DNA of 62,787 nt, counting the filler, from Squatina squatina (Eukaryota), in the NCBI GenBank assembly GCA_031763465.1. It is 4 parts of 4 records of this genome, joined end to end, with 100 filler letters (N's around TTAATTAATTAA, not from the genome) between each part and the next. Parts side by side here need not be neighbours in the genome. Positions count along the whole stretch, not along the records: positions 29,836 to 48,838 come from JARFOE010000036.1; 3 more parts are not named here. The stretch is one strand, 5' to 3'. The position numbers and the translations under genes are program-made. The notes below the pieces were generated by a model. The model made no database searches. It was not told the origin of the DNA and saw only the letters and a program-made list of their open reading frames with translations. Position 1 is the stretch's first letter, and each line of letters starts with the position of its first letter. Positions 15,578-61,966 of this stretch are shown piece after piece.

Positions 15578-15677
15578 NNNNNNNNNNNNNNNNNNNNNNN
15601 NNNNNNNNNNNNNNNNNNNNNTTAATTAATTAANNNNNNNNNNNNNNNNNNNNNNNNNNNNNNNNNNNNNNNNNNNN
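15578..15677. other. Artificial spacer: 44 N + TTAATTAATTAA + 44 N
   Basis: Palindromic 12-mer at 15622-15633 gives stops in all six frames and is centred in a 100-nt gap. Confidence 0.95.
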
Positions 15678-24215: not shown

Positions 24216-25129
24216 AAAGCAAGAAGAAACACTATCCTTTGCTTTCCCCCCCCACCAACCCTTTGTCTATCCATGTGGCCACATGCCCCTTAATTCCATG
24301 TGCTATTATGTGCAACCTTATCAAATATATTTTGGAGGTCCATATAAACCACACACATGACATTTTCTTTATCTATTCTCTCTGTTATTTCTTCAAAGAA
24401 TTCTATAAGATTGGCCAGATCACATCTTTGTGTCTCATTAGGACTGTTGCTTCTGGATCATTTCTCATCAGGACTGCAGCTGCTAATATAATTTAAGAAC
24501 AACTTCTTTATGTTTTCTCAGCAACATTTGTTTATAATTCAGTGGATTTTAAATAAATAGGGTTATTAACGAATTTCAATTGTTGAATTTTTGAAGTATA
24601 ATTTATCCACATACAACTGGCTATTAAAAGTTACTTTCATTCAAATTGACTGCAAAATAAGCTGATTTGGTGATTCTAAATCTTGAAAGGCCTCACCATA
24701 CTGGAGATGGAGCATATCTGTGCGCACTTTTTCCCATGTATACATATGCAATATTCATACTCATTCTCTACCCAAAACAGACTCGCTGTAAACGTACAAT
24801 GCAAATTACAATGTTTATGGAATTAATTGTGCCTTGGTGGATTTTGAATTTATGACCTCTAACCAACCAGTCCAGTAGCATAGCCACGATACTGTGATAC
24901 CTCCAAACACTTGAGCAGAAAGCAACTAATCTGTGCTTTACAGTGATTTTGGTTTAATTCTAGTCATGTAGTTAGACTTAGGCATTCCATAATTGATGTG
25001 ACATATAATTTTATATACTCCAGACTTCAAAAAATGAGTTTAGTCTAATTCCATGTGGATAAATTTACGTGTTCATATTATCATTAATACTGTTCTTACT
25101 GGTATTAATTACATTTAATATTGCCGCAG

Positions 25130-25287
25130 ATTTTAATGAGGTGATACCAGAGACTGAAAGACTTGACAGCAGCTTGCAGAAAGCCCGAGCTCAGCTCTCT
25201 GTCAAGGCAAGGCGACAGAGGCCATCTCGATCTCGACTACGAGATAGCATAAGCTCCACGGAGGGAGATGACAGCCTGGAAAGAAAG
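25130..25287 (+). CDS. SAMD14: SAMD14 / neurabin-1 (PPP1R9A)-family exon: (D)FNEVIPETERLDSSLQKARAQLSVKARRQRPSRSRLRDSISSTEGDDSLERK
   Basis: gcAG acceptor (25128-9) and GTaaat donor (25288); LDSSLxKARAQL and RPSRSRLRDS recall SAMD14, while ETERLDS and DSLERK recall PPP1R9A; paralogue assignment uncertain. Confidence 0.7.
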
Positions 25288-25334
25288 GTAAATGATTTCT
25301 TTTTTGACGATAGCACCGAAAAGTCCCCCACCCT

Positions 25335-25690
25335 CACCCAGCATGGGTCATTTGGTAAAGACAGTGTGGTGTTGAGCAGTACATCCAGAGGATCCCAGGT
25401 TCAATGCTAGCCTGTGCTAAATGAGCTGATCTCAGTCGGTCAGTGGTAGGTGGCGCTTCGACTGGCCTCAGTGTCCCTTGGTTATGAAAAGGGGGAAATG
25501 AGCCCATGTTTTCAACCTGGCTGCTGTTCAGTGAACTCTGCTGGAAAGTGGTGTGCATGGACGTCGGGTGAGGACAGCGCAGGACTTGGCCACGATGTCC
25601 TCCAGGGTTAAATAGCCACCTAGCATTCATTGTTTAGGCTCACAAATGAAGAATTGCCTTTTGGGTGAGGTGGTGAAGTGTGCCTAGGGA
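25335..25690 (+). repeat. SINE-like repeat, best-preserved copy of the family
   Basis: B-box-like ggttcaatgc near the 5' end and a body shared with three other copies in this window. Confidence 0.55.
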
Positions 25691-29559: not shown

Positions 29560-29735
29560 GGGGGAAGGGCTCAACGGAATCAATGGCCTACTCCTGTTTC
29601 TATGTTTTTATTTTTCCAGATGCTGATTCAATAGTGCATTTAGAAACATAGAAAATAGGAGCAGGAGTAGGCCATTCGGCCCTTCGGGCCTGCTCCGCCA
29701 TTCAATATGATCATGGCTGATCATCTAATTCAGTA
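29560..29735. mobile_element. Two CR1 3' ends in opposite orientation
   Basis: aatggcctactcctgtttctatgttt (+) and tagaaacatagaaaataggagcaggagtaggccattcggccc (-). Confidence 0.7.
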
Positions 29736-29835
29736 NNNNNNNNNNNNNNNNNNNNNNNNNNNNNNNNNNNNNNNNNNNNTTAATTAATTAANNNNNNNNN
29801 NNNNNNNNNNNNNNNNNNNNNNNNNNNNNNNNNNN
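29736..29835. other. Artificial spacer: 44 N + TTAATTAATTAA + 44 N
   Basis: Linker at 29780-29791. Confidence 0.95.
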
Positions 29836-29934
29836 TTGTCCTGTCGTTTGGTACCTGTGCAGCTTTCGGTGCAGCTCAATGTGAGCAGCATTGCAGAGAC
29901 TGACCCCTGGAGGGGCCAAAAACCTAGTCATTAA

Positions 29935-30244
29935 CTGCTGGTGGCAGAGAGTCAGAGTCCCTTTCAGAGCGGGTTGATATACTGGTGGTGGGTATCGGAC
30001 TCTCTTTCAGAGGGATCTGATACTCCTGGCAGTGAGTGTGGGCTTCCCAAATCAGAGGCGTCTGATAGCCCTGGCGGCAAGAATTAAAGCCCCGGTCAAC
30101 GAGGTCCAGTACCCCTGGAGGAGAGCGTCGACTTCTACTCAGAGAGTTCTGGCACCCCTGGCAGCAAGTATCTAACTCCCCATTCAGAGGGGTCCAACGC
30201 CCCTAGAGGAGAGCATCGGGCTTCCACTCGGAGGGTTCTGGTAC
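29935..30244 (+). repeat. Degenerate tandem repeat, about 44-bp unit
   Basis: Recurring ccctgg...tcagagg..tctg.tac units, about 7 copies, ending at a 10-N gap. Confidence 0.7.
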
Positions 30245-30396
30245 NNNNNNNNNNCCCCTGTGTGTACATACGTGTCCACGTTTGATGCTGTAGCTGAAAC
30301 AGAATGTATTCCAGGCCTGGGGCAGTGAGTGGGCGTCTAATTCCAGTGAAATAATAATGTTAATTAATAAACAAATTTTAATCTTCCTTACTCCAG

Positions 30397-30546
30397 GAGA
30401 TTGATGGCAAGTCCCTGCTCCTGATGAAGAGGAACGATGTTTTGACAGGACTGGCAATTAAACTGGGCCCTGCACTAAAGATATATGAATATCATATCAA
30501 GGTGCTACAGTTACATCATTTTAACAATGAGGCACCCTCCTGCTGA
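30397..30546 (+). CDS. SAMD1: SAM-domain protein last coding exon, SAMD1-like ([49 protein letters not shown])
   Basis: Acceptor cttccttactccAG; matches the SAMD1/SAMD13 C-terminal SAM domain; HIKVLQ..HF and neighbouring 19p13-type genes favour SAMD1. Confidence 0.78.
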
Positions 30547-31359
30547 TCCATGTCTGCCATTGGTAGCAGGCTATCTGCCCTGTACACCCAGCTTATATCT
30601 GCACGCGCTCCACTGCAGCCTCACTTTAATATATTCCCAAATTAAATTCATTCTATTTAAAGTGAAAGGAGGGAAACCACCAGGAATAAGAAGTTTATTT
30701 AAGAAAAAGTGCTGGGTTTGTATAAAGTAGGGTTTGGGAAGTGTTGAAGCCCTTCTCTCACTATCGGACCCACACTGTACAGGAATTCTCCCTTTTCCTT
30801 GGCGTAGCAGAGCTCCCAGTGCCGGGCTCGTTACGGGATCTTGCCTTCTCACCGATGGGAAGGAATCGCCCTGCTGACTGGCTGACGTGGGCGCGATGTT
30901 CTGCAGCTGGGTGAAATGCTGTTCAAACGTAGAAGAGGGGCTCTCTGCAAGACCGGCCCATCATCCTGTTTGACACACACAAGTGCACAAAAAGCATCGC
31001 GAAGCACACTTGGAGGAACTGTGCGGTTTGTCTNNNNNNNNNNNNNNNNNNNNNNNNNNNNNNNNNNNNNNNNNNNNNNNNNNNNNNNNNNNNNNNNNNN
31101 NNNNNNNNNNNNNNNNNNNNNNNNNNNNNNNNNTAGGATAAAAGAATACGGAGACATAGGTTTAAAATGGTGCAAGATAAGTGTAGAAGATATCAGGAAG
31201 AACATTTTTCACAAAAATAGTGATCACTAGCGATGGTCCTCCAGGTTTAATAATAGAGGTGAAAAGTGATTCAAGAGCCAGTTAGATAATATGGTGAGAA
31301 TGTAGATCTTTTGTACAGGATGGACGAGTCAAGATGGACCAAATAGGCTCCCTCAGCTG

Positions 31360-32050
31360 AACAACGGGGAAGATCTGTGATGGGGGGAGGGCAGGATTAA
31401 ATGACAAAAGGGATGATGGTGCAAGGCAAAAGGGTGGAACCATTATCAGCACCTGCTATTCAAGAAAATGGGAGCGATGGTTTTGATCCGCAGTTGTTTA
31501 ACTCAATATTGAGGCTGGAAGGTTATAAAGTGCCTAACTGAAAGATGAATTGCTGTTCCTCGAGCTTGCGCTGAGATTTATTGAAATAGGGTTGGAGGCA
31601 GAGGTCAGAGTGGGAGTGGGTTGGAGAATTAAAACAACAAGCGACCAGAAGCTCAGGGTCACACTTGCGGACTGAACGGAGATGTTCAGCAAAGTGACCC
31701 TGCAATCTACATTTGGTCTCCCCAATGTAGAGGAAACCGCATCGTGAGAGTTGAAAGTTGAAAGAAGTACAAGTAAATTGCTGTTTCATCTGGAAGGTGC
31801 CCCAGAGGGTGGAAAGGGAGGAGGTAAAATGGCAGATGTTGCATCTTCTGCGCTTGCATAAGAAGGTGCCTAGGGAAGGGTGTTGGGGGTGATGCAAGAG
31901 TTCTCCACAATGTCAAAGAGGGAATGGTCCCTTTGGAATGCTGAAAGTGGAGAGATGGAGAAGATTTATTTGATGGTGGCATCATTTGGAGGTGTCAAAA
32001 ATGATGGAGGATGATCTGTTAAATGTGGATGCTTGTGGGTGGAAGGTAGA
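31360..32050 (-). mobile_element. Degenerate Penelope-like retroelement (GIY-YIG)
   Basis: ORF 31523-31897 reads CKRRRCNIC...FTCTS...RCGFLYIGETKCRLQGHFAEHLRSVRK. Confidence 0.85.
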
Positions 32051-32377
32051 CCTTATTGTGGTTTGTGTTTGCCCTCCCATGTAATGTGAAGAGTGCACAC
32101 ATCAGAAAGGGACACCAAGGAGGGACGTCATGGTAACTCACCCTAGAGTTCAGGTTATAAACTGCTTCAGCCTCACTTTTTTGGTTTTAGGTGCCCGTTG
32201 AACCCTCAACATATACTTCCCTGCTTTTGTTTTAATACATTTGTCTGTTGATTTATAGCCTGAGCTGAAGTCTGATAAGAGTGTATATATTCATCTACCT
32301 ACCAAAGATGAGGTGATCATGAGGGTACATGACGTACTCCAGTATAGTGGCAAGGACTCCTTGTTTGACCTCCGAGT

Positions 32378-32821
32378 TTCACTACATTGTGGAGAGACTG
32401 GAGAAGCTGAGATTGTTCTCCTTAAAAGCAGAGAAGGTTAAGAGGAGATTTGGTAAAGGTGTTCAAAACATGAATGGTTTTGACAGAGTCAAAAAGGAGA
32501 AACTATTTCCAGTGGCAGAAGGATCAGTAACCAGAGGATACTGATCTATGGTAATTGGCAAAAGAGTGAGAGGAGATATGAGGAAATTTATTTTTACGTA
32601 GCTAGTTGTGGTGATCCGGAATGCACTGCCTGCAAGTTTGGTGGAAGCAGATTCTATAATAACCTTCAAAAGGGAATTAGATAAATACTTGGAAGAAAAA
32701 AAATTGCAGGGTTATGGGGAAAGAGCAGAGGAATGGGACTAATTAGATAGCTCTTTCAAAGAGCCGGCACAGGCACGATGGCTTGAATGGCCTCCTCTGA
32801 TTGTATTATTCTATGATTCTA
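32378..32821 (+). mobile_element. CR1 LINE 3' end
   Basis: ERLEKLRLFSL, MNGFDRVKKEKLFPVAEGSVTRG, and tattctatgattcta tail. Confidence 0.9.
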
Positions 32822-33274
32822 CATTTATCTAGATATTGGGTACGTAAAGACACAATTGACTTTATAATGGATACAAATTTCATTTATGAGAGCAGCTGGT
32901 GCAATGTAACACTGAACTAAGATAGGCCAGACAGCCCCTCCTCATGCCATGCAAGTACCGCTGTTAATTAAAGCAAAATGCATATTTTATAACTCTTAGG
33001 CCCTCCTTTCAATATCGAGTCAGTCCAAATACGTTCCTATAAATAAGGGAATTAGGAAGTAGTAGCCATATAAATACACACTGCAAAATTACAGTATAGT
33101 ATTTCTGATTCATCAAATACAGATTCTCAAATTTTTGGTGATGCTACAAATGTTGATCTTCTTGTGCGCATCAAACAAGAGTAGGCAGCTACCATGAACA
33201 CTGACACCCAGCATCAGCTGCAACGTCTGAATACTGAACCATTTCCCCGATAAGTAAAATGTGGAGTGCACAGT

Positions 33275-33650
33275 TGAGGGGACTCGGTAGCGTAGTGGTT
33301 AAGTTGCGGAACTNNNNNNNNNNNNNNNNNNNNNNNNNNNNNNNNNNNNNNNNNNNNNNNNNNNNNNNNNNNNNNNNNNNNNNNNNNNNNNNNNNNNNNN
33401 NNNNNNNNNNNNNCCCACAAGGCGTCTTCCCATTCTCCTGGCCAACATTGATCCTTCACGTCAACCTACAACACCAAAAGAGATGATCTGGTCATTTATT
33501 TAATTGTTGTTTTTGGGATATAGTTGTGCACAAATTAAGTGCCCTGTTTCCCCTACTTTAAAACAATGACTACACTTTAATTGTACTTCATTGGCTGTGA
33601 AGCACTTTAGGACGTCCTTAGGATGTGAAAGGCGCTATAGAAATGCAAGC
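33275..33650 (+). mobile_element. DeuSINE (SacSINE1-like) pieces flanking a gap
   Basis: tRNA-like head ggtagcgtagtggtt; 3' body gatctggtcatttat...cattggctgtgaagcactttaggacgtcc...aaggcgctatagaaatgcaag. Confidence 0.65.
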
Positions 33651-33732
33651 GGATGAGTGGTCTGGTTTGGACGAGGCTCCTCTGTACACAGTGATTGAGG
33701 TTTATTGCATTGTGCTCTCTCCTTTCCTGTAG

Positions 33733-33843
33733 GGTAGCGACGGACCACAATGTGGACAACACCACGGCAGTGCTGAGGGAGTGGCTGGTGAATGTACAGA
33801 GATTCTACCATTCTGTCGAGTGGAGACCCATGGATGAGCCAAA
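33733..33843 (+). CDS. COLGALT1: Procollagen galactosyltransferase exon ([36 protein letters not shown])
   Basis: Acceptor cctttcctgtAG and donor GTgagt; matches recalled human COLGALT1 VATDHNMDNTSTVLREWL...YHSVEWRP. Confidence 0.9.
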
Positions 33844-34559
33844 GTGAGTCTAGCTGCTGGCTACATCATTAACCCTTGAGATTCGGGCTGTTTCTTTGCA
33901 CGGGCAGTGACCTTTCTCAATGTGGACAGAGAGCTGCGGACCCATCTGAGAACGGTTTGGCCCTGATAGTTCCCGACAGCAGAGAACCAGATCGAGATGA
34001 TCAATTGCTCCTATAATTTGAGTGGCAACTGCACGAAGTGTTCCCTCACCTCACTCGATCAGGTTGCAGGTACTTCTCCACATGTTTACACAGTGCCATA
34101 TGGCCCCCATACTCCATGGCTATCTGCTGTCCAGTGACACTTACCATTGTAGTATTCGTGCTGGTACTCGCTCACCATATTCAGTGACTTTAGTGAATCC
34201 AGCAGCTTTACCTGGATGTTGCCCATCGGGCTCTATGATCTCAATGGGTGTTTGGATCTCTTGCACTCAATTGCTATGATAATGACTATGGGGAGCAAAG
34301 ATGCTTCCAGTGAAAGACTAGTCTCGTTGGGGTGTTTTTCTACGTTAAAGAAGCTCTATAAAATCAGGCTGTTGACGCTGAAGCTCTTCCCGTATTATCT
34401 TCAGCGGNNNNNNNNNNAGTTTGTGTGGAGCCCCAGTTTGCAGCAGTGTAGCGTGCAGTGTGTACCACAGGAATAGCTCATGGCAATTCCAGGTAAGATA
34501 CAGCTGACAGTATTGGACAGTGTCTTTGTGCTTGTGTGTCTTTTACTTGTTCTTGGGCC

Positions 34560-34800
34560 GTGTGCGGCGCTGGCAAAGGCCGTACTTGCTGCCCATCCCT
34601 AGTTGCCCTAAAATAACGTGCCCATCCCGAGCTGGGTTCTTGTTGAGCCGCTGCAGTCCCGCGATGGCGTTAGGGTCAGGAATTCCAGGATAATGACCCA
34701 GCAACGATGAAGCAACGGCGATACATGTCCAAGTCAGGCTGGTGCGTGCTGTGGATGTGGTGTTCCCCTGATATTGCTGGTCACGTCCTCCTTAGAGGCA
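34560..34800 (-). mobile_element. Probable LINE 3'-region remnant
   Basis: gcccatccctagttgccct...ccgctgcagtcc...ttccagga...gacccagc pattern recalled from abundant shark LINE ends. Confidence 0.5.
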
Positions 34801-35091
34801 GGGCTGGACTACAATACAGAGGGGGATGGAGAAGGTCGGTAAGAGAAATGGCAAAGTGTGGTGTGGTTTAATATTAAGGTGGCCCAGTTAAGGATAGTTA
34901 TCTGATATNNNNNNNNNNNNNNNNNNNNNNNNNNNNNNNNNNNNNNNNNNNNNNNNNNNNNNNNNNNNNNNNNNNNNNNNNNNNNNNNNNNNNNNNNNNN
35001 NNNNNNNNATCTGCCTTGTTTCTGTGATGATAGTTGCAGTCGTGTTGCGCTGTTGAATGGATTGACTGTAATACTTGCTTTTGCTCGGAAG

Positions 35092-35296
35092 GGTTATTAC
35101 AAGCGGACCCCAGCCTATGTCCCGATACGGAAACGCGACCGACTGGGCTGCTTCCCGGTGGTCATGGTCCACTCCACGATGCTGATCGACCTCCGCAAAG
35201 AGGCCTCCAAGCAACTGGCGTTTTACCCCCCGCATCCCGACTACACCTGGTCTTTCGACGACATCATTGTCTTCGCGTTTTCGTGCCGGCAAGCAG
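35092..35296 (+). CDS. COLGALT1: Procollagen galactosyltransferase exon ([68 protein letters not shown])
   Basis: aAG acceptor (35090-1) and GTgagc donor (35297); near-identical to the recalled COLGALT1 segment. Confidence 0.93.
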
Positions 35297-35557
35297 GTGA
35301 GCCACAGGATACGGCCTGCTGTGAATAGACTGAGTGTGTGGAGCTGTGGAGGGGCCTGGGTGGGCAGAGGGCTGACTTTGGGTTCTAATTCTGAGGCTAT
35401 GGAAAAAGATGCATCGCTGCAGTCATCTCTCCATCTCCTATCAAATCCATTAACCATCTTAAACTTAACAGTTCGATCACCCCTTAATAGTCTATTCTTG
35501 ACGGAATACAAGGCTTTTGTATTCCCTTGAATAAAGGAGGTGACTGTTGCCTCTGAT

Positions 35558-36172
35558 AGGAACATAGGAACTGGAAGAAGCCATTCAGCCCCTCGAGCCT
35601 GTTCGTCATTCAATGAGATCATGGCTGATTTGTGACCTAACTCCACCTACCCACCTTTGTCCCATATCCCTTAACACCTTTGGTTAACAGAAAGCTATCA
35701 GTCTCCGATTTAAAATTAACAATTGATCTAACATCGATTGCTGTTTATGGAAGAGAGTTTCAAACTTCTTCCAACCTTTGTGTGTAGACGTGTTTCTTAA
35801 TTTCACTCCTGACTGACCTGGCTCTAATCTGCACTCCACCTCGCTAAAGGTCCTAGGGTTATACAGTGAAGACACTTTGGGGAAAGTTGTGTTGCTGTAG
35901 CCGGGCACGCCACTGAGCTTGGGTTTTAGGGTGACACAGGAGCATCCAGCCCCTCGAGCCTGTTCCATTATTCAGTTAGATCATGGCTGATCTTTATCTT
36001 AACTCCATTTACTCCGTAACCCTTAGGTTTTTGTTAGGCAAGAGTACTATCAACCTCAGTTTTGCAATTTTCAATTGACCCCCGGCCTCAACAGTCTTTG
36101 GGGGGGGGGGAGAGAGAGTTCCAGATTCCCACTTCCCTTTGTGTGAGGAAGTGCTTCCTGACATCACCCCTG
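35558..36172 (-). mobile_element. Two CR1 3'-end fragments
   Basis: Repeated cagcccctcgagcctgtt...gatcatggctga at about 35585 and 35945; RKHFLTQREVGIWNSL on the minus strand. Confidence 0.8.
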
Positions 36173-37043
36173 NNNNNNNNNNNNNNNNNNNNNNNNNNNN
36201 NNNNNNNNNNNNNNNNNNNNNNNNNNNNNNNNNNNNNNNNNNNNNNNNNNNNNNNNNNNNNNNNNNNNNNNNTTTTAAATACATGCAGGCTATCAGATTC
36301 TGATTTAAAATACAGGCCCACCACTCACACCGTCCCCGTTTATACCTGACAGCTTCCGATATCGGGCAAATGGCTGCAAAGCACTTTGGGATGTCCTGAG
36401 GTCATGAAAGACGCTCTATAAATATAATTTCTTTTGATTCTTTTCACTGTTATAGGGTAAGACACAATTATTACCTTGGTGGCTAATTCAATCAAACTCA
36501 ATCATTCTAAACAGCGATGCTTCTACATTAAAATGAACTCTTATAGTCCAGGGACCCTGTACTGTTGATTTGTTCTCCATTCACCTTGCCACTAATTATG
36601 CCAGGAGCCAATAGGAACAGCTCGCAGAATTTACCATCAGATTCTGTTTTTTCAAGAATTTGCTTGGAAGAGATTGCAAGGATAAGCATATATAAATGCT
36701 TTGTATAAATATTGTGCTGTTTGGTATCTTGTTGCATCTTTTTTTGCATCGACATAATTTTATTTCTAAATAAATCTGGCTGGGTAGCTTGGCCTGCATG
36801 CAGTAGTTTGGTGGTGTGTTATTTCCTCCCTTCTGAGGTGACAGAAGCTAATAGCAGGAATTCCATGTATTCTCCAGTGCACGTTTTACTGCAATTTGGA
36901 GTTAATTGTTACACCTGGGCTATGCGAACACATACCAGTGGAGAATAAAGACTCAGGTGGGGTCTGTTATTGGAAACTGGATACAGCCCTGGAACATGCG
37001 GAGAGTATTGGGAGGGAGCTCGAGCTGTAACACTAAATGCTGC

Positions 37044-37320
37044 TCACTCTGTTTCATGGCCTTTCTCCTCACCCATCTTCTTAATCCTGTACTTAAGCTG
37101 CCTTAAGGGGTCTGTGAGACTCTTCCAGGTCCAGTCCTCAAAGTCTTCTGGCAGGAGAAAGTTCCTGTCGATGACCTCGGATGCTTCCCACCAGTTCTTG
37201 AAACAATCCACTCCCATCGTGGAGATCTCTGCTACCCCATTCCTGGTGATGATGTCTCCATTGGGTTTGAGAACGACGATGCTTGGGATGTCCTTGATGT
37301 TGTATTTCTTTCGTAGCTCT
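37044..37320 (-). CDS. NXNL1: Nucleoredoxin-like 1 last exon (RdCVFL C-terminal half)
   Basis: Acceptor ttttgtgttccAG; IPSIVVLKPNGDIITRNG...CFKNWWEASEVIDRNFLLPEDFED...SLTDPLRQLKYR matches NXNL1; TGA at 37046-37044. Confidence 0.9.
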
Positions 37321-37749
37321 CTGGAACACAAAATGTGAACGTTCATTGGAGTCCATGCTACCTTATCAGATCGGCTCCTTGAAGGAGTGAACTGGCACTT
37401 ATATCGTGCCTTTCACCTACGCTTGACATCTTAGAGCAATTCACAGCTCATGAATTGGTTTTAAACTGCAGTCACTTGCAAATGAGGTGGATGGGAAAAA
37501 GATCCCATGGCNNNNNNNNNNNNNNNNNNNNNNNNNNNNNNNNNNNNNNNNNNNNNNNNNNNNNNNNNNNNNNNNNNNNNNNNNNNNNNNNNNNNNNNNN
37601 NNNNNNNNNNNCCATCATGCAAGATTGTAGCCAGTTTGCAATTGGCACCAAGCAGTGGATGTCAGGATGGGGAATAGCAGATTTCAACCAAATCAACTGT
37701 ACAACTCTGAGGATTTCTGCAAATTTGGACAGCAAACATTCTGAGGATA

Positions 37750-37840
37750 TAAACAAAAAATGCTGGAAAAACTCAGCAGGTCAGGCAGCATCTATGGAGA
37801 GAAAAACAGAGTTAATATTTCGGGTCGATGACCCTTCGTC
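37750..37840 (-). mobile_element. Penelope-like terminal repeat fragment with hammerhead-like remnant
   Basis: Matches 4505-4590; minus strand reads GACGA-A-GGGTC-ATC-GACCC-GAAA. Confidence 0.7.
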
Positions 37841-37859
37841 TTTTGGCTCAAGGATTTCA

Positions 37860-38180
37860 GATGGCCTAGTTAGTGGTTTAGTGGGTAAACACATTAACTA
37901 GTGTGATCATGATCTAATCAGATCAGGAAGCTCCCAAGTTTGATCCCCAGTTTGCGCTCAGTAGTTTTGTTTTCTACTTTGGTGGTTTCAGATATACTAC
38001 AATTGACCTCAGCCTCTTTTTGCTAGGCTGGGGATAAACTAGGCAGGGTTCCCATGCCTGATTACTATCCATTGTCTGAAAAGTTCTTGTGTAGGGATAT
38101 AAGGAAGACAGTCTGTAATTCCCCATGGTTGAATAGCTTGAAACGAGGTCACTGGATCTGAAGAATGACCACCTATGAGC
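37860..38180 (+). repeat. Old SINE-like repeat family copy
   Basis: Similar to 25335-25690. Confidence 0.5.
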
Positions 38181-38329
38181 GGCAATGGAGAGCTAAGGTT
38201 ACATAATGCTAATTTATGCCAGTGGCAATGAAACAATCCAGCATGTGTCAGCGTCTTCAGGAGAGGAGGTAGAGCATTGAAAAACCAGAAATTGTGTTCC
38301 CAAGGCTTGCTATGCTGCATTAAACAGAA

Positions 38330-39090
38330 CCTACCTGTTCCAATGATACCTATGGTGGCCTACAAACCATGCACCACCATTAATGGTGAAATCAAATATG
38401 TTACACAGATATTAACACTGATGTCGATTTCAAGTGCTACTTAAAGGGACACTCACCACCTAAAGGTATACTCACCATTTCATGGTCATTGCAACTGGAG
38501 CTGTGAAGAGGATCCCTGAAACACATCAGGAGATGTTCTGGAACACTTTACTAAGACTTCACCAAGACTCTCAAAATTTATTCCAGAAATTCCCTGAGAA
38601 CTTCACCTAAATAGTGTAAGTGCTGTGCTACTCCACCTTATTGGACACCTTATAGAAGCCACCAGGAGAAAGGGAATGCTTGGTCATCGGCATCTTGTTA
38701 GGGGTCCTCCTTGGCCTGGATGAAGCATGGAAGGAGGACATGAGGCCAAGCAGAGTAGCACCAGTTGCTGCAGGAGAGAGGGACAGGAGGGCGAGAAGGG
38801 CAAAGTGGCATCCTTCCCTCCCTGCAGATACAGGACATCCCTATTCCTCTGGATCTCCTCTACCAGGATCTCCAGGGCCACAGCTGAGAACCTGTGCACC
38901 CTCTCCCATCCTGCAACATGCCGCAGTGTGCCAGCACACTCCACACCTTCAGTGGAAATGGGTGCAAGGAGCCCACATACACTGCTCTACGAAAATTGCG
39001 TCTAATCAGCACACGAGTGCTAAACCTACAGGTTTCTGGTTAGCATCTCCAGGCAAGTTGAAATTATGGTAATCAACAATTAGGCCCAAA
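38330..39090 (-). mobile_element. Degenerate PIF/Harbinger element with Myb/SANT-like ORF remnant
   Basis: ORF 38684-38944 RVHRFSAVALEILVEEIQRNRDVLY resembles the N-terminus of Harbinger Myb-like proteins; boundaries approximate. Confidence 0.6.
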
Positions 39091-39597
39091 ATTGTGTGCT
39101 GAATCTGGATTTTTAAACATGCTAGTCTTATTAGCACAGCACCCAGTTAGCATCTGTTTTCACCCTTTTGCCTAAATAATCCCCTATTTAACCATGTTGC
39201 TATGATGTTAGGTGCTTATTATTTCAGCTCCCAACATCATAACAATATGCTTATATTGCATCTGTACACCAGTAATAACATAATTCCTTATATTCACCCT
39301 TGTATCGCAAATAACTATTGCATGTTATTTGATTCAACCTGTTGTAAAAATGATGCAGAATGTCAGATACCAGATGGACCATATTGTGCAAATAAGCCAC
39401 TGTGTTTTTAGTACTACTGCGCTGAATTACTGCTTAAGCACATAAAATATGAGTGTTCTCTGATTTTCTATATTTTTATCAAGGATTTTGACTTCAACAT
39501 TGGCTTTTTGAGTCAATACTTAAAATGAATGTAGTTTACTCAGAAGCAGCGATACACAGAATTAATTTCCTCTGCTATTTATGATTTTCCGAACGTT

Positions 39598-39950
39598 TTA
39601 CAACAACAACATGCATTGATCTAGCACCTTGAACGTAGTAAAATGTCCCAAGGCGCTCCTGTGATCAGACAAAATTCGACACCGAGCCACATAAGGAGTC
39701 ACTAAGCTTGGTCAAAGAGGTGGGTTTTGAGGAGTATCTTAAAGGAGGAGAGAGCGAGGCGGAGAGGCAGAGGTTTAGGGAGTGAATTCCAGAGCTTAGG
39801 GCCGAGGCAGTTGAAAGCACGGCCGCCAATTGTGAAGGTTGTGGGAGATGGACGAGAGGCCACAGTTGGAGTAACGCAGAGATCTGAGTTGTAGGGCTAG
39901 AGGAGATTAGAGATAGGGAGGGTCGAGGCCATGGAGGGATTTGAAAGCAA
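39598..39950 (-). mobile_element. L2-type LINE 3' end
   Basis: Minus strand APPWPRPSLSL...LWNSLP-type remnant with a ttgggacattttactacgtt...atgcatgttgttgttg tail; homologous to 41645-42130. Confidence 0.8.
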
Positions 39951-40857
39951 GGTCCTATAGAAACAACCTGTGTCTCACGGGTGACCAGTTGCCGTTTTGA
40001 AATTTGGTTGGAAAGCTGACCTCCATCTTGGTCCAGTTTTAAACCCCTGAAAGAGAGGCAAATCTTCGCTCTTTCCATGGTGGACGTAAATACTTGTGTC
40101 ATCGCAGGGCAGTCCCGACACCATGAGTCAAGGTTGCTGGATGAGATGGGAAGAAGGGAGCAAATACCTGAGGAAAATGTAACCCTCCATGACGAAAAAG
40201 CAGTATCTCTTTGGGGCGTGTGTAGCTGCCTTTCCTTTCAATGTGAGGTGGGCGTGTGGCTCTGAGGGGACACAAAACGGGCCCAGAATGTGTTCAGAAA
40301 AGCACAGCACTGTCGCACCAAGCAAAGGTCAGTGTGCAGATTTTGGTGTCAACATTAATCTCTGGCGGTTTCGTAACTCGATCTCCTGCTATAATTAAAG
40401 ATAATTTGTTTATAATTAATCCCTGGTCCGGTTGAGTGTCACGGAGTTTGATGCCAAGGATTCTGGAGCATTTACTTATCCAAACGAGCGGCTTATTTGT
40501 TTCGAACAGGTGGCCTGTTGACAGCCCATTAACAGCAGACAGTACTCNNNNNNNNNNNNNNNNNNNNNNNNNNNNNNNNNNNNNNNNNNNNNNNNNNNNN
40601 NNNNNNNNNNNNNNNNNNNNNNNNNNNNNNNNNNNNNNNNNNNNNNNGAAGTCATGTTTGTTTCCACCTTTTAGTTCAAGAATCTGCCCCACAGTCTGAA
40701 TGGAAAATGTTGTGAAGCAAAAGGAGGAGTGACATTAGAATTATATACAAAGTAATTCATCAATACCCACTGCAGACAGGACGTCCCAGGCCAGATAGGT
40801 CGCTGTTCTGAGAGAGAGACCAACCTAGGGACAACTCAGCGGTTCCGGGAACGGTAG

Positions 40858-40942
40858 TTATGCCGCCTGCCTCTCCTCCATCATCTTCTTCCTCTTCAGC
40901 AGGCGCCTCTCCCTCTCGTACTCTTTCATACGCATCACATAA
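40858..40942 (-). CDS. NDUFB7: Complex I subunit NDUFB7 last coding exon ((D)YVMRMKEYERERRLLKRKKMMEERQAA*)
   Basis: Acceptor ctctctcgccccAG; phase matches the upstream exon (GA+T = Asp); TAA at 40860-40858. Confidence 0.95.
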
Positions 40943-41430
40943 CTGGGGCGAGAGAGAACATGAGGTTAGTGGGCTGGACTCTCCGCCCTGACTGAATGCA
41001 CCAAGACAAATGAACAGGGAATCTGCTGTTGGTTCAGGGAACTATATTTGAGTGTAGCTCCAAAGATGCCAGCAGCCCTCTGGTATCCTGCCCAAAAAGA
41101 CCATTCTTCGTGCCAATCTGGAAGCCGAGTACTGACTGGCTCTTGCGCCATGAGTGGGACACCACCCACTGGATCCTGTCACAAGATAGCAACCCACCGA
41201 CTAGAAGGCCTGGCTGAACGTTACGCTCTCTGGCCCAGTGGGGAAATTGGAAGTTGGACTGGACAGAGATCTGGGAACAAAGCAGGTGCCTTTCCTATTG
41301 CCTGTGGCTCAGCTCTGGCCACTGTGTTCACCAACTCATTACTGGGGGGGGTTAAACTAGGTGTGGACCAGGTAGACCACGCGCTACCCCAGACACAGAG
41401 CGAGCGCAGCAGGCAAAGGTGAACTCTTAC

Positions 41431-41599
41431 TCCTGGTGCTCGCAGTAATCCCAGTCGTGACGCTCGTGTTTACACTCCAGGAAGTTGGGCCACATGTCGC
41501 GCTTACACTTCAGGAACTTGATGAGGTAATGAGCACAGTAATCTCGCTGACTGAGGGGCAGCTGGGCATCATTCATCTCCTGCTGTGTCGCGATCATCA
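41431..41599 (-). CDS. NDUFB7: NDUFB7 penultimate exon with twin CX9C motif
   Basis: [55 protein letters not shown]; ctctctcAG acceptor and GTaaga donor. Confidence 0.96.
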
Positions 41600-41644
41600 C
41601 TGAGAGAGAGAAAAGCACACGGTCACTACATTAAATCCCAGGCA

Positions 41645-42130
41645 GACAATTGCATTTATATAGCACCTTTAATGTAGTAAAGCGTTCCAAGGTGCTTTAC
41701 AGGAGTGTTCTCAAACAAAATTCAGTTCCAATATTAGCACGGGGTTGGTCAAAGCAATATTTTTTTAAGTAGTGTCTTAGAGGAGAGACGGAGAGATTTA
41801 GGGAGGGAATTCCAGAGCTTCGAGCCCCAAGTAGCTGAAGGCACGGCCGTCAGTGGTGGAGCGATTAAATCAGGGATGCACGAGCGGCTAGAATTGGAGG
41901 AGGGCCGAGATCTCAGAGGGTTGCGGGACTGGAGGAGGTTACAGAGATAGGGAGGGGCGAGGCCATGGAGGGATTTGAAAACAAGGATGAGAATTTTAAG
42001 CATTGTGGCGTTGCCGGACCGGGAGCCTTTGTAGGTCAGAGAGCACAGGGGGTGATGGGTGAATGGGACTTGGTGCGAGTTAGGCTACGGGGAGCAGAGG
42101 TTTGGATCACCTCGAGTCGATGTTTTAAGT
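41645..42130 (-). mobile_element. L2-type LINE 3' fragment
   Basis: LKILILVFKSLHGLAPPYLCNLLQ...KLWNSLPKSLR and an aaaggtgctatataaatgcaa tail. Confidence 0.85.
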
Positions 42131-42659
42131 ATGGTAAACCTTCACGATCTTGTGGAATTCTATCAGGTCAAAGGTTACAGAGGGTGCAAGGCCAGGAGAG
42201 CATTGCAATAGTCGAGGCTGGAGGCAATTAAAACACTTAAAATAAAAATCATTCTGATTAACTCCTGTTACAGAATTCCGGCTCTTCATTGAACACTTCC
42301 CATCACTGTTTCTATTTACCAAATTGCTTTTTTCAGCGCTGTTGCTGACATTTACTTTAACAAGTCGATCTCCCGTGGTGTTGTACAAAGGGCAGGACTG
42401 CACCGTGTTTTACAAGGTCCATCGGGCCTGCCCCACACCATGGCTGGAGCATCGTGATCAGACACTTCCTACCCACCCCCACAGCCATGTGACCTGGAAA
42501 ACTCTCCGACTCCCCCAGGCACTCAAAACCAGTCCAGGAAATCACATGGACCAAGCGTTATCTATAAAGACACTTGACTTCCATATGATGCGATTGCTGC
42601 CCCAAGCTACTGCTGACGTACAGAGTCAGCACCCACCACACCATCCGTCAACACGTTCC

Positions 42660-43040
42660 AGAGGCTCACTACTCTCTAGGCTGACGCTCCCAGGGCAATA
42701 CTGAGGGAGAGGTGCGCTGCTTTGTCGGAGGGGCAACACCGGCAAAGCGCTGCGCTGCCGGGAGGGCAGTATTGAGGGAGCACTGCGCTGTCGGAGGGGC
42801 AGTATTGGGGGAAGTGCTGCACTGTCGGTGGTGCCGTCTTTCAGAAGAAACATTAAACCGATGCCCCATCTGTTCTCTCAGGTGGAAGTAAAAGATCCCA
42901 GGGCAGTATTCTGAATATGAGCAGGGTTATCCTCAGTGTCCTGGCCCATATTTATCCCTCAACCAACATCACTAAAAAAAAATTAAATGACCTGGGCATT
43001 ATCTCATTCCTGCTTGTGGGATCTTGCTGCGCACAAATCA
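42660..43040 (+). mobile_element. DeuSINE (SacSINE1-like) with internally amplified about 33-bp unit
   Basis: Deu-domain-like core gtgctgcactgtcgg.ggtgccgtcttt...ttaaaccg...caggtgga.gtaaaagatccca...tttatccctcaaccaacatcactaaa. Confidence 0.8.
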
Positions 43041-43509
43041 CACTGTAACTCAGCAATTCTGCTGCTAAGATGGAGCTATGTCCCTCTTACTGTTATTAAG
43101 TCAATACAGGCTCAGGTCAATCAGAGTTTATTTGGTGTTCAGTCAGGGAGCTGTGCCGACTGATGTCGAGCTGCGGGACAGAAGTACCCAGCATTTAAAC
43201 AACAGCTTTCTCTTTTTCTTCTGAAGATGATTTTGTGTCAGAAAGACGCTGAGACTGATGCACCTTACTGCTCTGCAATGTTCTTAATCATTCCTTTAAC
43301 TTGCCCTCGCCACCACTGACAATAGAACTTCACCCCAGTGTTAATCAGCTCCAAATACTCGGCCCAGAATCGAGCGCTGCTCTGCTGGCCGTTCTCACTC
43401 TTTCAGTGGACACAGATGAAGAATAAAACTCATCACATCTCTCAGAAAAGTCTCAAAGTGCTTAGCATTCAAAGAATTACTTTGAAATGTTTGGCATGTA
43501 GGCAAATGA

Positions 43510-43830
43510 GGCAGACATTATGCACATAGCAAGATCCCACACTGAATAACGAGTTAATGTACTTCGGTGTTTTTTTGTTGCAGGAGGAATGTCACCCAGG
43601 ACAGTGGGAGAACTGCCTGTCATTCTTCAGATAGTGTCTTGGAGGTTTTAGCATTTGCTTGAACGCCCACCAGAACAGGCAGGCAGGGATCAAAGCACAT
43701 GGGGCCTCGGTTTAATGTTTCATCCTAATGACAGCACTCCCTCAATACTGCAGAGGTGTGTCAACCTCGATTATACACTCAAGTCCTGGAGTGCGGCTTG
43801 AAAATACAACCTCCTGATTCAAGAGGCTGA
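43510..43830 (-). mobile_element. DeuSINE-like copy
   Basis: Reverse complement of cagtattgagggagtgctg...attaaaccgaggcccc...gtgggatcttgctatgtgca. Confidence 0.7.
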
Positions 43831-44472
43831 GCCAACCTGACACGTGTGTCTGACCGGAGATGGAAGCAAACTGGGATTTAATATTTAATTGCTGAGTGAG
43901 ACAGTTAATAATCATAAAGACGAAGGGCACAAAGTGATGTCAGAATAGCAGGTGCTCCTGATAGTATTTCAAATACCCCTTTGTCTAAAAGCCAACAGTT
44001 TAACCTTTTATGTGGTTTCAAAGATTTGAGAAGTTTCTTTTCACCACCTCTGGTAAATATCAGTAACACACATTTTCTCATTTTTTAGCACTCTATAGTT
44101 GCTGGACCTCATTCTCCTAAATATTTTGTGATAATAAAGCAGCACATGGATGTCGCGCCGAGTACGCAAGGGGTTAGTTGTGTTCTTCAACATCCCCTGG
44201 TTGTCAATCACTGTCACAAACATTACAGGTGAAAGCTATAATTTATATGGCCTTTATTTCTGAAAAAAAACCTAGCTTAGACGCACACATAGAGACTCTG
44301 CAAGGCAGAGTTCACTGTAGGAGGCTGATTAAATTATATCAATGTCCAACAGCTAAACTAACAAATACAATANNNNNNNNNNNNNNNNNNNNNNNNNNNN
44401 NNNNNNNNNNNNNNNNNNNNNNNNNNNNNNNNNNNNNNNNNNNNNNNNNNNNNNNNNNNNNNNNNNNNNNNN

Positions 44473-44601
44473 GGCTTAGTGGCGCTGTTGCCGTTCATGA
44501 AGTTTGGCCGGTATGGCGTGCAATGGCCAAAGACGTGGTGCTTCATCAGTGTGGACCCCAGGAGCCATTGGACAGAGGCCGCCTTTGCCCTGCTCTTCTC
44601 C
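44473..44601 (+). CDS. Prostanoid GPCR fragment, TM4-ECL2-TM5 (EP1/TP/EP3/FP clade)
   Basis: GLVALLPFMKFGRYGVQWPKTWCFISVDPRSHWTEAAFALLFS carries the prostanoid receptor signature LP..G.GRY..Q(W/Y)P.TWCF. Confidence 0.8.
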
Positions 44602-45066
44602 GAGATTGTGCAGTACTGCCAGAACCGGGTGTACTCCGTGTCGGAGCTCCAGAACAAGCTGTCGGAGCTGGGCCAGCAGGTGGGTGCGCGCATCCTGGAC
44701 GTGCTGGTGATGCGCGAGAAGAACGGCAAGCGCGAGACCAAGGTTATCAACGTGCTGCTCTTCATCAAGGTCAACGTGTGGAAGGCCCTGTTCGGCAAGG
44801 AGGCCGACAAGCTGGAGCAGGCCAATGACGACGACAAGACCTATTACATCATTGAGAAGGAGCCACTCATCAACGCCTACATCTCTGTGCCCAAGGAGAA
44901 CAGCACGCTGAACTGCGCCTCATTCACGGCGGGCATTGTAGAGGCCATCCTCTCGTACAGTGGCTTCCCGGCCAAGGTGACCGCCCACTGGCACAAGGGC
45001 ACCACCCTGATGATCAAGTTCGACGAGTCTGTCATTGCACGCGACAAAGCTTTGGATGGACGATAA
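44581..45066 (+). CDS. TRAPPC5: TRAPP complex subunit 5, lacking its native N-terminal ~27 aa
   Basis: AFALLFSEIVQYCQNRV...WKALFGKEADKLEQANDD...YISVPKENSTLNCASFTAGIVEA...GFPAKVTAHWHKGTTLMIKF...LDGR*. Confidence 0.96.
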   Translation, partial: AFALLFSEIVQYCQNRVYSVSELQNKLSELGQQVGARILDVLVMREKNGKRETKVINVLLFIKVNVWKALFGKEADKLEQANDDDKTYYIIEKEPLINAYISVPKENSTLNCASFTAGIVEAILSYSGFPAKVTAHWHKGTTLMIKFDESVIARDKALDGR

Positions 45067-45857
45067 AATGTTCGATTAATGTTTGGTGTCAATTTGACAC
45101 GTGTCGGTGCACACCCCCACCCCTCCTTTCACTGATCTTACCCTACCAACACCCCGCCCCACCCTGCCAAAGACCTCAAAGCAGGACTGTGCACTTCAGT
45201 TTGCAATGTTGAGATGACCTTGTCTCCACCCGTCCCCAGTTCCCAGCCCCCTGTTGAACATTGACCATTCCAAGTGTGCAAGATTCAACTCTGATTATGT
45301 TCTTTAACCGTCTCTCTCTCTCTGCTGATTCTGCCCTGCAGCAGCCTCCCTTTGTTCTGGGGCTGTACTGCTCTAAGTAGTCCCCCAAATAATGCTCGAT
45401 CCTCCCAATGTCTGATATTTATTAGCACAATCTGAAGTTGTACATGCAAGTTAGCATAACATATAAAAAGAGCTATAAAACCCAGGTCACAGAGATGGTG
45501 GTTTCTCCCGTCTCCGAGGCTTCCATGAGAGTTAAAGTTAGGAACCATCTCCATCCAGGTATTGGTTGGCATGGGGTCAACAGCACAGAAATTCCCTGAA
45601 TTCTGTGTCGATCTCACTGAGAGGGACCACCGTGCCGGGGGNNNNNNNNNNNNNNNNNNNNNNNNNNNNNNNNNNNNNNNNNNNNNNNNNNNNNNNNNNN
45701 NNNNNNNNNNNNNNNNNNNNNNNNNNNNNNNNNNNNNNNNNGGCCAACTCCTGCTCCTATTATGTTCTTTAGGTTCTTATGCTGGAGCCTGGGGTTGCCG
45801 AGAGATTTGAAACCACAGATCCCAGAGGAGTCAGTAAATCTTTCCCTCTGTCCCCAG

Positions 45858-46007
45858 GAATTTGGGAAATTCTTCCGGCAGAAGCACAAGAAGGAGATGT
45901 CGTGCACCACTCGCATGGAGTTTCTCAACGGCTGGTACATCCTGCTCAGCGTCAGCGACATTCTCACCACCTTGGGAACAATCATGAAGATAGGAATCGA
46001 GTCCAAG
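45858..46007 (+). CDS. MCOLN1: Mucolipin (TRPML) internal exon
   Basis: 150-nt phase 0/0 exon (tccccAG / GTaaag); [32 protein letters not shown] matches MCOLN1 [32 protein letters not shown]. Confidence 0.88.
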
Positions 46008-46311
46008 GTAAAGGAGGTGAACGCTGGCCGGACCGTGACTTCACCCAGTGTCGGCCCGGGTACAATTTGGTCAAAGGGTGGTTTAAATCATGCGGAAAGG
46101 GCAGCTTGACAGAATTACTGCCTTCAACACTTTTACAGTGAGATAACAACAGCTGGATGTTTTGTCAATTTCGCAATACTTTTTACTGGGTGCGAAGGTG
46201 AGGTGTGAGTGTCCTGTCCCGACATTCATCTCTCACCAAAAGCTGGTCATTTATCTGCACACTGGGTGTCGAATCGCTGCTTTGTAAATCTCCATAAAAC
46301 TTTGTCCCTCT

Positions 46312-46490
46312 CAGCTATGCCCTCTAGTATTTGACATTTCTACCCTGGGAAAAAGATTCTGACTGTCTACCCTATCTATGCCTCTCATAATTTTATAAAC
46401 TTCTATCAGGTCTCCCCTCAGCCTCCAACGCTCCAGAGAAAACAATCCAAGTTTGTCCAACTTCTCGTCATAGCCAATACCCTCTAATCC
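46312..46490 (-). mobile_element. CR1 LINE fragment
   Basis: YDEKLDKLGLFSLERWRLRGDLIEVYKIMRGIDRVDSQNLFPRVEMSNTRGH. Confidence 0.9.
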
Positions 46491-47139
46491 ACAGCATCCT
46501 GTGAGGGAGTGACCATTATGCTTGCAAGCCAGACATAGATCCTGCAGCCGTAGTTCATTCAGTAATTTGTCTTCTGAGACCACAATTTTAAAGCAATTGT
46601 AGTTCACCTCAGGAAATCGTTGCGTCATGAGATAGTGATCTGATGAAGATTGTACTCAGCACCTCAAAAATGGCTGCCATCAATCCCACAATTGTTAGCC
46701 ACAAGTTCTGCCTCCTACTACAAGGTGTGAACATTTAAGCTGTATGGCCTGGAATTTGTCTAGTGGCAACAAAACTAAACTCAAAAGCATGAAACCAGAA
46801 TCTTGAGAGGATGTTGTGGCAACATTTGATTTCTCTCTTCTTCCCTGAAGTCTCTCCACACATGGCACTGTTTACAATTCAGGGAGTAAGCAACTTTATT
46901 CAAGTACTGTATTAGTGCCAATAAAGGCAGTTTGTGTAAACATTGAGCTTCAAACTCAAATAATCCAATCAACCCAATATCCACACAATAACTAATTCTC
47001 TCTTCAAATTTCATTAAGCATCAACAGTTGTCAAAATATTGAAATGTTTGCTCAGGCACTTTCACTAAATACTGGGCTTAAACTGTTTTAACGACAATAA
47101 AAATAACTGGTTAATGCTATATCATACCTCTAGATACTA

Positions 47140-47280
<141 letters not shown>

Positions 47281-48838
47281 TCAGTGACATATTTCCTGAA
47301 TTTATCCTGGTTCAAGCAGGCCAGAGCAACTAACATCCCTGGGCCACCCAACCTCACCTTGCAGGAAAAGGTGAAATGAATTCACTGAAGAATTTGACAC
47401 TTGAGCCAGCAAGCAACAATTCCACAGAAAGCATCAGCAACTGGGTAAGTAATAAAAATTCCTGAATTGCTATCTCAAACTCAAAGGCATCTTTAATGGT
47501 GATGAAACTGGCCTTGTATGGAGGCTGCATCCAAAGGGAATGCTAACTTTCATCAACCAAAAACGTTCAGGTGGAAGAAAAGCTGAGCAGCAAATTACTG
47601 TCAGGGTTTGTACTAGCATGTTTGGGGGGAGAGAGTGGGTGCAGGGCGAAAGAAAGCTACTGCTGATTGGGAGTTGAGTTCCCCCTCTTCCCACCCCCCA
47701 TTGTTTTTATGGTGCTGCTACTCTGCCTGTGTGACCTACAGAAACAACAGAAAGGCATATGAATGGTGCTTCTTTTTGAGGAGCAGTTCTGTCACTTTGT
47801 CCAAAGCAGGATATCTCCAGGCAGAAAAGTCATGTTGATGGTTAGCAACTGTGGGCTTACATGAAGTGCCTGCGTTAGAATCCATTGGCACCAGCTTTCT
47901 CCACCCACCAAATTCAACCCACCAGCTGCATTGATTCCGCATGGGGAACAGACAGCCGACGCTGAAGCAGAAAACCTCTTGGAGTGCGAGTTCTCTGTTG
48001 CAACTGTCAGAAGACATGAAGTTTGAATCCATTTTGATTAAAATAGGACTGATGCAGGGTTATAACCCTTGCTCTTTTAAGTAAAATAGCATTGGGAAAC
48101 ACCTTTTTTTCCTATTTTGCATATGTTCAATTTTACATTGGCAGCAACTCACCTAAAAAAAATTGCCTGCCCAAACATTAAAATGAGTTCAGCCCATCCT
48201 GACCCCAGATATTCCAATGTTCCCAACAGTACCTGGAACTCCGCTAGTCTGTATGACTCAATAAGTGAGCCTTGGCAGTTTGATTGAGTAACACAATACA
48301 GTTTTCCTTCTCATTTTCCTGTGATATGCTTTCACATTTACTTAAAAAGAAGTAATTCCCAATCCCCTATGAATTAAACAATGTTTGCTATCTCTCCGTA
48401 GTTCTACTCACCAGATGTTTCCAGAAAAATACTTTGCCAGATGTTATATAGCGTGCTGCTTTTGAAAAAAAAAAGCTGAAAAGTCCCTTCAGTATTCAAA
48501 GAGTTAAATTATCAGGCTTTAAGAGGCATTTGTTCTGGCGCATTTTCAATTACACTGCTTCAGAACAAAGCACGAGCTTGGCTAATGAAGAGTTGAGATA
48601 ACTGGAAGTCAGTACTTACAATGTGAAATGTTCAGTGGACAGAAGCGTTGATTCTGATACTTGAGTGGTTTTGATAATCAAGGGTTGTGAGTGCGAAGAG
48701 GACCGTTCTTTAATATGTGCTACTCACCTACCATTTTTTGAATTGGCTTGTAGTCTTTTTATTCTGTTTTTGTCATGTTGAGGTAACAAATGGCTTTGTA
48801 AGCCTATGTTGTTCTAGGTAACCATAGTAATCAGAAGA

Positions 48839-48938
48839 NNNNNNNNNNNNNNNNNNNNNNNNNNNNNNNNNNNNNNNNNNNNTTAATTAATTAANNNNNN
48901 NNNNNNNNNNNNNNNNNNNNNNNNNNNNNNNNNNNNNN
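48839..48938. other. Artificial spacer: 44 N + TTAATTAATTAA + 44 N
   Basis: Linker at 48883-48894. Confidence 0.95.
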
Positions 48939-61520: not shown

Positions 61521-61966
61521 TCTCCCTCCTCCACCAAGAGAGATCTCTCCTCCACCAAGTGTGAATCCCTCCTCCACCAAAAGAAGCTCCCTCCTCCACC
61601 GAGTGAGATTCCCTCCTCCACCAAGAGAGACTCCCTCCTCCACTGAGTGAGCCTCCTTCCTCCACTGAGACAATCACCCTCTTCAAATGAGTGAGTGTCC
61701 TTCCTCCACCAATGAGACTCTGTTCTTCACTGTTTGAGAGTTCCCTCCTCTACTGAGTGCCTCTCCCTCCTCCACCAAGTGAGACTACCTCCATCACCGA
61801 GTGGGACTCCCTCCTTCCCCGACTGAGATTCCCTCCTCCACCGAGTGAGACTCCCTCCTCCACCGAGTGAGATTCCCTCCTCCATCAAGAGAGATTCCCT
61901 CCTCCACCAAGTGTGAATACCTCCTCCACCAAGAGAGACTCTCTCCTCCACCGAGTGAGTCTCCTT
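61521..61966 (+). repeat. Minisatellite, about 22-bp unit CTCCCTCCTCCACCGAGTGAGA, about 20 copies
   Basis: Directly visible head-to-tail array running into a gap. Confidence 0.92.

Follow-up and report, generated by a model that had tools for sequence, protein, structure and literature searches.

An in-frame chimera of an EP1 receptor-like fragment and TRAPPC5 in a Squatina squatina assembly, very probably an assembly misjoin

Is the open frame at 44473-45066 of the Squatina squatina sequence analyzed here (assembly GCA_031763465.1; a stretch of 62,787 nucleotides, filler included, hereafter the window) a new fusion gene of the animal or a product of its assembly? On the plus strand, a single open frame of 197 codons without internal stops begins at 44473, the first base of its contig and directly after a 100-N gap, and ends with a TAA at 45064-45066. 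An earlier sequence-only reading had described it as an in-frame receptor/TRAPPC5 chimera, uninterrupted from the contig start to the TRAPPC5 stop, and both the frame and its coordinates were confirmed. The chimeric contig and its upstream edge are organized as follows.

44373-44472, no strand: gap of 100 N that borders the chimeric contig, at whose edge the receptor frame begins mid-exon
44473-44580, plus strand: PTGER1-like (EP1 receptor) coding fragment of 36 codons, equivalent to residues 184-219 of the catshark protein P0002 and holding an ATG at 44497
44581-44601, plus strand: ambiguous junction of seven codons (AFALLFS) at which both receptor TM5 and TRAPPC5 helix 1 begin; presumably the k-mer common to the two genes
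44602-45066, plus strand: TRAPPC5 coding part, intact from residue 35 (usual length, 188) through the stop
45067-45641, plus strand: TRAPPC5 3' flank, lacking AATAAA, ATTAAA and any poly(A) tract (at most 5 consecutive A)

The assignment of the larger part to TRAPPC5 was borne out. Residues 38-184 cover the complete Pfam domain PF04051 (TRAPP, Bet3-like; positions 1-154 of 154) with an E value of 7.5e-44 and 149.6 bits against a cut-off of 27, and the best PDB match was zebrafish TRAPPC5 (chain 2j3w_B, the Trs31 orthologue), aligned without gaps to residues 37-197 (E 2.5e-95). Since matches to TRAPPC3/6 structures had E values of 5e-4 or worse, TRAPPC5 is the nearest relative. A caecilian TRAPPC5 (P0003) shares 93% identity with residues 29-197. 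The usual first 27 residues and the start codon are missing, and receptor sequence stands in their place, in agreement with the replacement of the native N-terminus proposed earlier. In an ungapped register, residues 1-36 are identical to the catshark receptor at 28/36 positions and to the caecilian TRAPPC5 at 3/36; residues 37-43 agree with both at 6/7, and residues 44-60 agree with the receptor at 0/17 and with TRAPPC5 at 17/17. These values for residues 1-36 led us to reject a merely divergent TRAPPC5 N-terminus as the explanation. Judged by its relatives, the N-terminus that was replaced is a conserved one: the pattern [LI]L[ED][RK] occurs at most 30 residues upstream in 73 of the 102 named relatives that have the helix-1 motif, and it is absent in the window.

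The N-terminal part had been read as a prostanoid receptor, with a BLASTP-type search of the first 43 residues as the proposed check. In the PDB, all 21 sequences matched by residues 1-43 were prostanoid receptors, with EP1 as the best (E 1.3e-8), and in a large protein search the sole match among 56 candidates was a catshark protein labeled 'EP1 subtype-like' (P0002; E 3.8e-14), identical at 34/43 positions over its residues 184-226. Both E values reject a chance resemblance, so that the receptor identity stands and could be narrowed to a putative EP1 (PTGER1)-like gene on the basis of the best match. Pfam gave no match for residues 1-43, and five unnamed matches to 50% representatives (E 2e-5 to 2e-4) were left out of the argument. 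The fragment holds the TM4-ECL2 signature ending in TWCF, and 44473-44580 presumably corresponds to the end of TM4 and to extracellular loop 2. TM5 itself is lost, with a best 19-residue hydropathy of 0.64 at the junction versus 2.79 in the catshark receptor. The receptor arm amounts to 108 bp of unique plus 21 of ambiguous sequence, beginning mid-exon at the contig end; instead of seven transmembrane helices, the window has no other receptor sequence, and the upstream part falls in the gap. Both halves of the chimera are intact, with GC3 values of 0.78 and 0.87 and no signs of decay.

From the residue comparisons, the switch is placed inside the seven-codon stretch 44581-44601, which is compatible with both proteins, and the 20-mer quoted for it was located at 44581-44600, as stated. 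AFALLFS had been described as common to both proteins; this is shown for FALLFS only, as the window reads EAAFALLFS and the catshark receptor EDVFALLFS. Judging from the flanking codons, the DNA run common to the two native genes would be at most ca. 23 nt (44579-44601), and a 20-nt identity between them is suggested by the junction itself. Given a common AFALLFS peptide alone, such an identity has a chance of ca. 0.005 with local codon use. The reported lack of a splice site at the switch was also upheld: a pyrimidine-rich acceptor look-alike does end at AG 44603-44604, but it reads GAG instead of YAG and lies inside conserved TRAPPC5 coding sequence. Splicing was rejected as the cause of the join on this ground and because the join lies in contiguous genomic DNA. 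The in-frame ATG at 44497 would give a product of 189 residues (native TRAPPC5, 188); it is an ordinary receptor methionine, present in P0002 too, in a weak start context. The search for the native TRAPPC5 5' end and the receptor continuation, suggested together with the chimera, recovered neither within the window. There, tblastn with P0002-P0005 and parts of them found no reciprocal chimera and no other receptor or TRAPPC5 pieces (best other E 0.29), none of the 12-mers of 44473-44639 was repeated, and motif scans for further pieces yielded a single match, in a stop-rich frame.

The state of the assembly bears directly on the origin of this join. The window comprises four blocks that contain 43 contigs longer than 50 bp in all; their median length is 1169 bp, the gaps measure either 10 or 100 N, and among the 42 adjacent pairs of contigs no ends overlap by ≥6 nt. 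The elements that frame the chimera at this scale are listed below.

15578-15677, 29736-29835 and 48839-48938, no strand: three identical 100-base spacers (N44-TTAATTAATTAA-N44) that split the window into blocks of 13-18 kb
29836-48838, no strand: block holding the chimera, 11 contigs between two spacers, GC 0.46 versus 0.40 in the other three blocks
40861-41630, minus strand: two exons of NDUFB7, on the contig that precedes the gap; Pfam identified the first, and the second was read from the translation
45858-46007, plus strand: mucolipin exon on the next contig, across an N gap and on the same strand as TRAPPC5; its sequence alone does not separate MCOLN1 from MCOLN3

The spacers look artificial, and adjacency across them would be meaningless; a literature search did not reveal the convention behind them among the matches listed. 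Within the block there are scattered exons of SAMD1 (+), COLGALT1 (+), a nucleoredoxin-like gene (NXNL-like, -), NDUFB7 (-), TRAPPC5 (+), and mucolipin (+), in this order. Multi-exon genes are represented by one or two exons only; since most of their exons are missing, the block would be a thin, ordered sample of a far longer region, probably ordered by means of a reference. We take its thioredoxin-fold gene to be NXNL1, for which family matches were weak, and the order presumably interleaves genes that lie megabases apart on human 19p. The GC content of 0.46 suggests a microchromosome. By gene order, the mucolipin exon would be MCOLN1. Along 40648-45641, NDUFB7 (-) and TRAPPC5 (+) are divergent and both lack their 5' ends, which are expected in the gap at 44373-44472; a GC-rich promoter common to the two genes that dropped out of sequencing is possible.

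Some other elements of the window were also recorded. An exon at 25063-25407 (+) matches the tankyrase-binding protein C-terminal domain (PF15327, E 3.2e-7) and is presumably KIAA1671- or TNKS1BP1-like. An open frame at 38687-38986 (-) had no Pfam match at E 0.05, and we take a segment of it to resemble Myb/SANT-like proteins of Harbinger elements. Repeats comprise a minisatellite at 61522-61964 (period 22, ca. 20 copies, 74% matches), an imperfect inverted repeat at 29582-29676 (78% over 97 bases), and two dispersed pairs with 73-76% identity (4888-5431/31494-32016 and 39762-39952/41785-41986) that are probably retroelement fragments.

The neighborhood of the two genes was then compared with that of other vertebrates. 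We take human TRAPPC5 to lie at 19p13.2, and SAMD1 and NDUFB7, which are neighbors of human PTGER1, are both present in the block of the chimera. Human SAMD1, PKN1, PTGER1, and NDUFB7 are placed within one 1.2-Mb interval (PMC3363957). In teleosts, too, a mucolipin gene follows TRAPPC5 in the same orientation, as found in four merged gene models and in the mudskipper coordinates, where the annotated spacing is 53 bp and c19orf67 and a pkn gene lie at most ca. 80 kb from trappc5; 'ptger' does not appear in that supplement table of trappc5 neighbors (PMC10982859). The catshark EP1-like receptor sits on a sequence of 26.0 Mb, within the 13-30 Mb given for microchromosomes of this species (PMC11979771). 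In the portions of the skate supplement tables that were searched, trappc5, ptger1, ndufb7, mcoln1, and nxnl1 were not found (PMC10115646), and a gene-position search of the supplement tables of PMC11406177 gave 0 matches. Altogether, the receptor gene and TRAPPC5 appear to derive from the same ancestral chromosome neighborhood, and the linkage argument that had been offered for a real fusion is somewhat stronger than it was originally put (SAMD1 and NDUFB7 in the block, the mudskipper, and the human interval). With mucolipin beside TRAPPC5 as in teleosts, the TRAPPC5 part is at home, and it is the 108-bp receptor arm that would be the intruder.

We consider the chimera to be, very probably, an artifact of assembly rather than a new fusion gene: a de Bruijn misjoin that followed the clipping of tips. 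This was also the preferred explanation of the sequence-only reading, and it gains support from its fit to so fragmented an assembly. The animal would carry both genes, PTGER1-like and TRAPPC5, in normal form, with ca. 20-23 nt in common by chance, as each uses GC-rich codons for FALLFS. In a de Bruijn graph of small k, this common run would collapse into a single node, entered from either gene and left toward either gene. If coverage was low, the native path into TRAPPC5 and the native path onward in the receptor would be missing or short and would be removed as tips, leaving a single path from the receptor arm through the shared run into the TRAPPC5 arm, and the contig would then have been placed beside the mucolipin contig through its TRAPPC5 part. 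Section 16 of PMC3861042 describes both X-cuts at short repeats and the loss of correct k-mers to tip removal where coverage is low. If the native arms were clipped in this way, the reciprocal chimera would be missing from the assembly as well, and its absence lends no support to a real fusion.

A toy model (4000 trials per coverage, assuming k=21, 150-nt reads, and a 150-nt tip limit, with no read threading and no repeats) took the wrong path at shared k-mers in 8.9% of trials at 3x, 2.9% at 4x, 0.9% at 5x, and 0.2% at 6x, and recovered native joins in 19.6% (3x) and 8.7% (4x). The median island was 874 bp at 3x and 1268 bp at 4x, values that bracket the observed contig median; as repeats break contigs too, the real coverage may have been above 3-4x. 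Counting against a misjoin, an arm of ≤150 nt was present in only 12-22% of the wrong joins made at 3-4x, and the rate of wrong joins drops steeply at 5x and 6x. We estimated ca. 200-800 in-frame seven-codon collisions among 5-10 million codons, using a match rate from the GC-rich local exons that probably overstates the genome-wide figure. With that many collisions, several to tens of such chimeras are predicted, and a scan of the genome should meet one. A collision with a random k-mer would not favor a neighbor, yet the partner looks local; collisions are made likelier by the GC-rich codons used on microchromosomes, and a local, reference-binned assembly would explain a local partner.

The main rival to a misjoin is a real microhomology-mediated rearrangement between PTGER1 and TRAPPC5 (a deletion or inversion join) on one microchromosome, probably heterozygous, which we regard as unlikely. 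The in-frame join at a stretch compatible with both genes, the probable linkage indicated by the block content together with the human (PMC3363957) and mudskipper (PMC10982859) data, and the location of the catshark receptor on a sequence of microchromosome size (PMC11979771) would all fit it. However, the mudskipper table with trappc5 neighbors lacks any 'ptger', and the supplements of the skate study (PMC10115646) and of PMC11406177 yielded no gene coordinates. The microhomologies of end joining are usually only a few bases long. By the topology of these receptors, the complete product would consist of four membrane helices, with the receptor truncated behind loop 2, and a luminal TRAPP domain, and the allele would most likely be null for both genes. 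TRAPPC5 is described as a core subunit of both TRAPP complexes, in which Trs31 boosts GEF activity >400-fold (PMC10152722), and in yeast, no colonies were recovered when TRS31 was cut and a human repair template supplied (PMC13564602); a fixed loss is therefore unlikely, and a fixed fusion with its TRAPP domain in the lumen, away from the cytosolic partners, is implausible. A bolder version is highly improbable: on a shark microchromosome, a germline rearrangement would have brought TRAPPC5 under the PTGER1 promoter, with the TRAPP subunit still working and EP1 knocked out. A working subunit is conceivable because the product from the ATG at 44497 would swap only the N-terminal region, described as disordered (PMC10152722), and keep the whole TRAPP domain, but this 189-residue product needs internal initiation.

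Nor did database searches reveal such a fusion in relatives, where its independent occurrence would favor a genuine fusion gene. At E<0.01, similarity to the receptor or to residues 1-36 was seen in none of 123 named TRAPPC5 relatives (from a set of 145, with 22 unnamed ones left out; 120 of 746 matches listed). Among 26 longer proteins, 25 were TRAPPC5 joined to other partners, 0/25 with a GPCR Pfam domain, and the remaining one was the catshark receptor; as these searches rely on shared words, they are weak evidence of absence. A literature search of titles and abstract openings, a weak negative as well, gave no PTGER1-TRAPPC5 fusion among the matches listed. Chimeric molecules can also form in the library, by template switching at the shared run during PCR or whole-genome amplification, and be admitted at low coverage. 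Amplification chimeras favor nearby loci and short homologies, and the receptor part (129 nt including the shared run) fits in one short read; but a lone read is usually outvoted or clipped, and shark gene spacing probably makes a distance of a few kilobases unlikely, so we consider this origin very unlikely. A chimeric retrocopy, from a switch of reverse transcriptase between TRAPPC5 and PTGER1 mRNAs, would account for two exonic parts joined without an intron. It is barely conceivable, with neither a poly(A) tract nor a polyadenylation signal in the 575 bases 3' of the stop, and with mucolipin, the conserved neighbor of TRAPPC5, on the next contig, although that placement may be reference driven.

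Most likely, then, the chimera is present in the assembly file and was correctly described, but it is absent from the animal. As an artifact, it is a warning that seamless in-frame gene chimeras are to be expected in very fragmented assemblies. It is also an annotation trap, since it would pass as a complete TRAPPC5 of 189 amino acids with a false N-terminus, and other fusion-like findings in the same assembly should be discounted unless checked against reads. A real chimera would instead be a naturally arisen fusion allele that unites a GPCR gene with a core gene of trafficking, made at a coincidental coding microhomology.

Compared with known systems, the TRAPPC5 part resembles TRAPPC5/Trs31 in its full TRAPP domain, its gapless alignment to the zebrafish protein, and the mucolipin that follows on the same strand as in teleosts, and differs from them in lacking the first 27 of the usual 188 residues, where receptor sequence is found. 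The other part resembles PTGER1/EP1 (catshark P0002; PDB 9m1h) in 34/43 residues, with EP1 as the best PDB match, but the window has only 43 of 368 residues, and TM5-TM7 are replaced. Database proteins that fuse TRAPPC5 to another gene are known in the merged TRAPPC5-mucolipin models of teleosts (P0123, P0124, P0127, and P0128), probably gene-prediction errors from tight adjacency, with read-through as the alternative; they are joined at the TRAPPC5 C-terminus, whereas the chimera is joined at the N-terminus and already at the level of DNA. The likeness to chimeric contigs made from short shared k-mers (X-cut plus tip removal) lies in the switch within a short common stretch and in the fragmented short-read assembly; unlike a random collision, the partner here seemingly comes from the same chromosome neighborhood.
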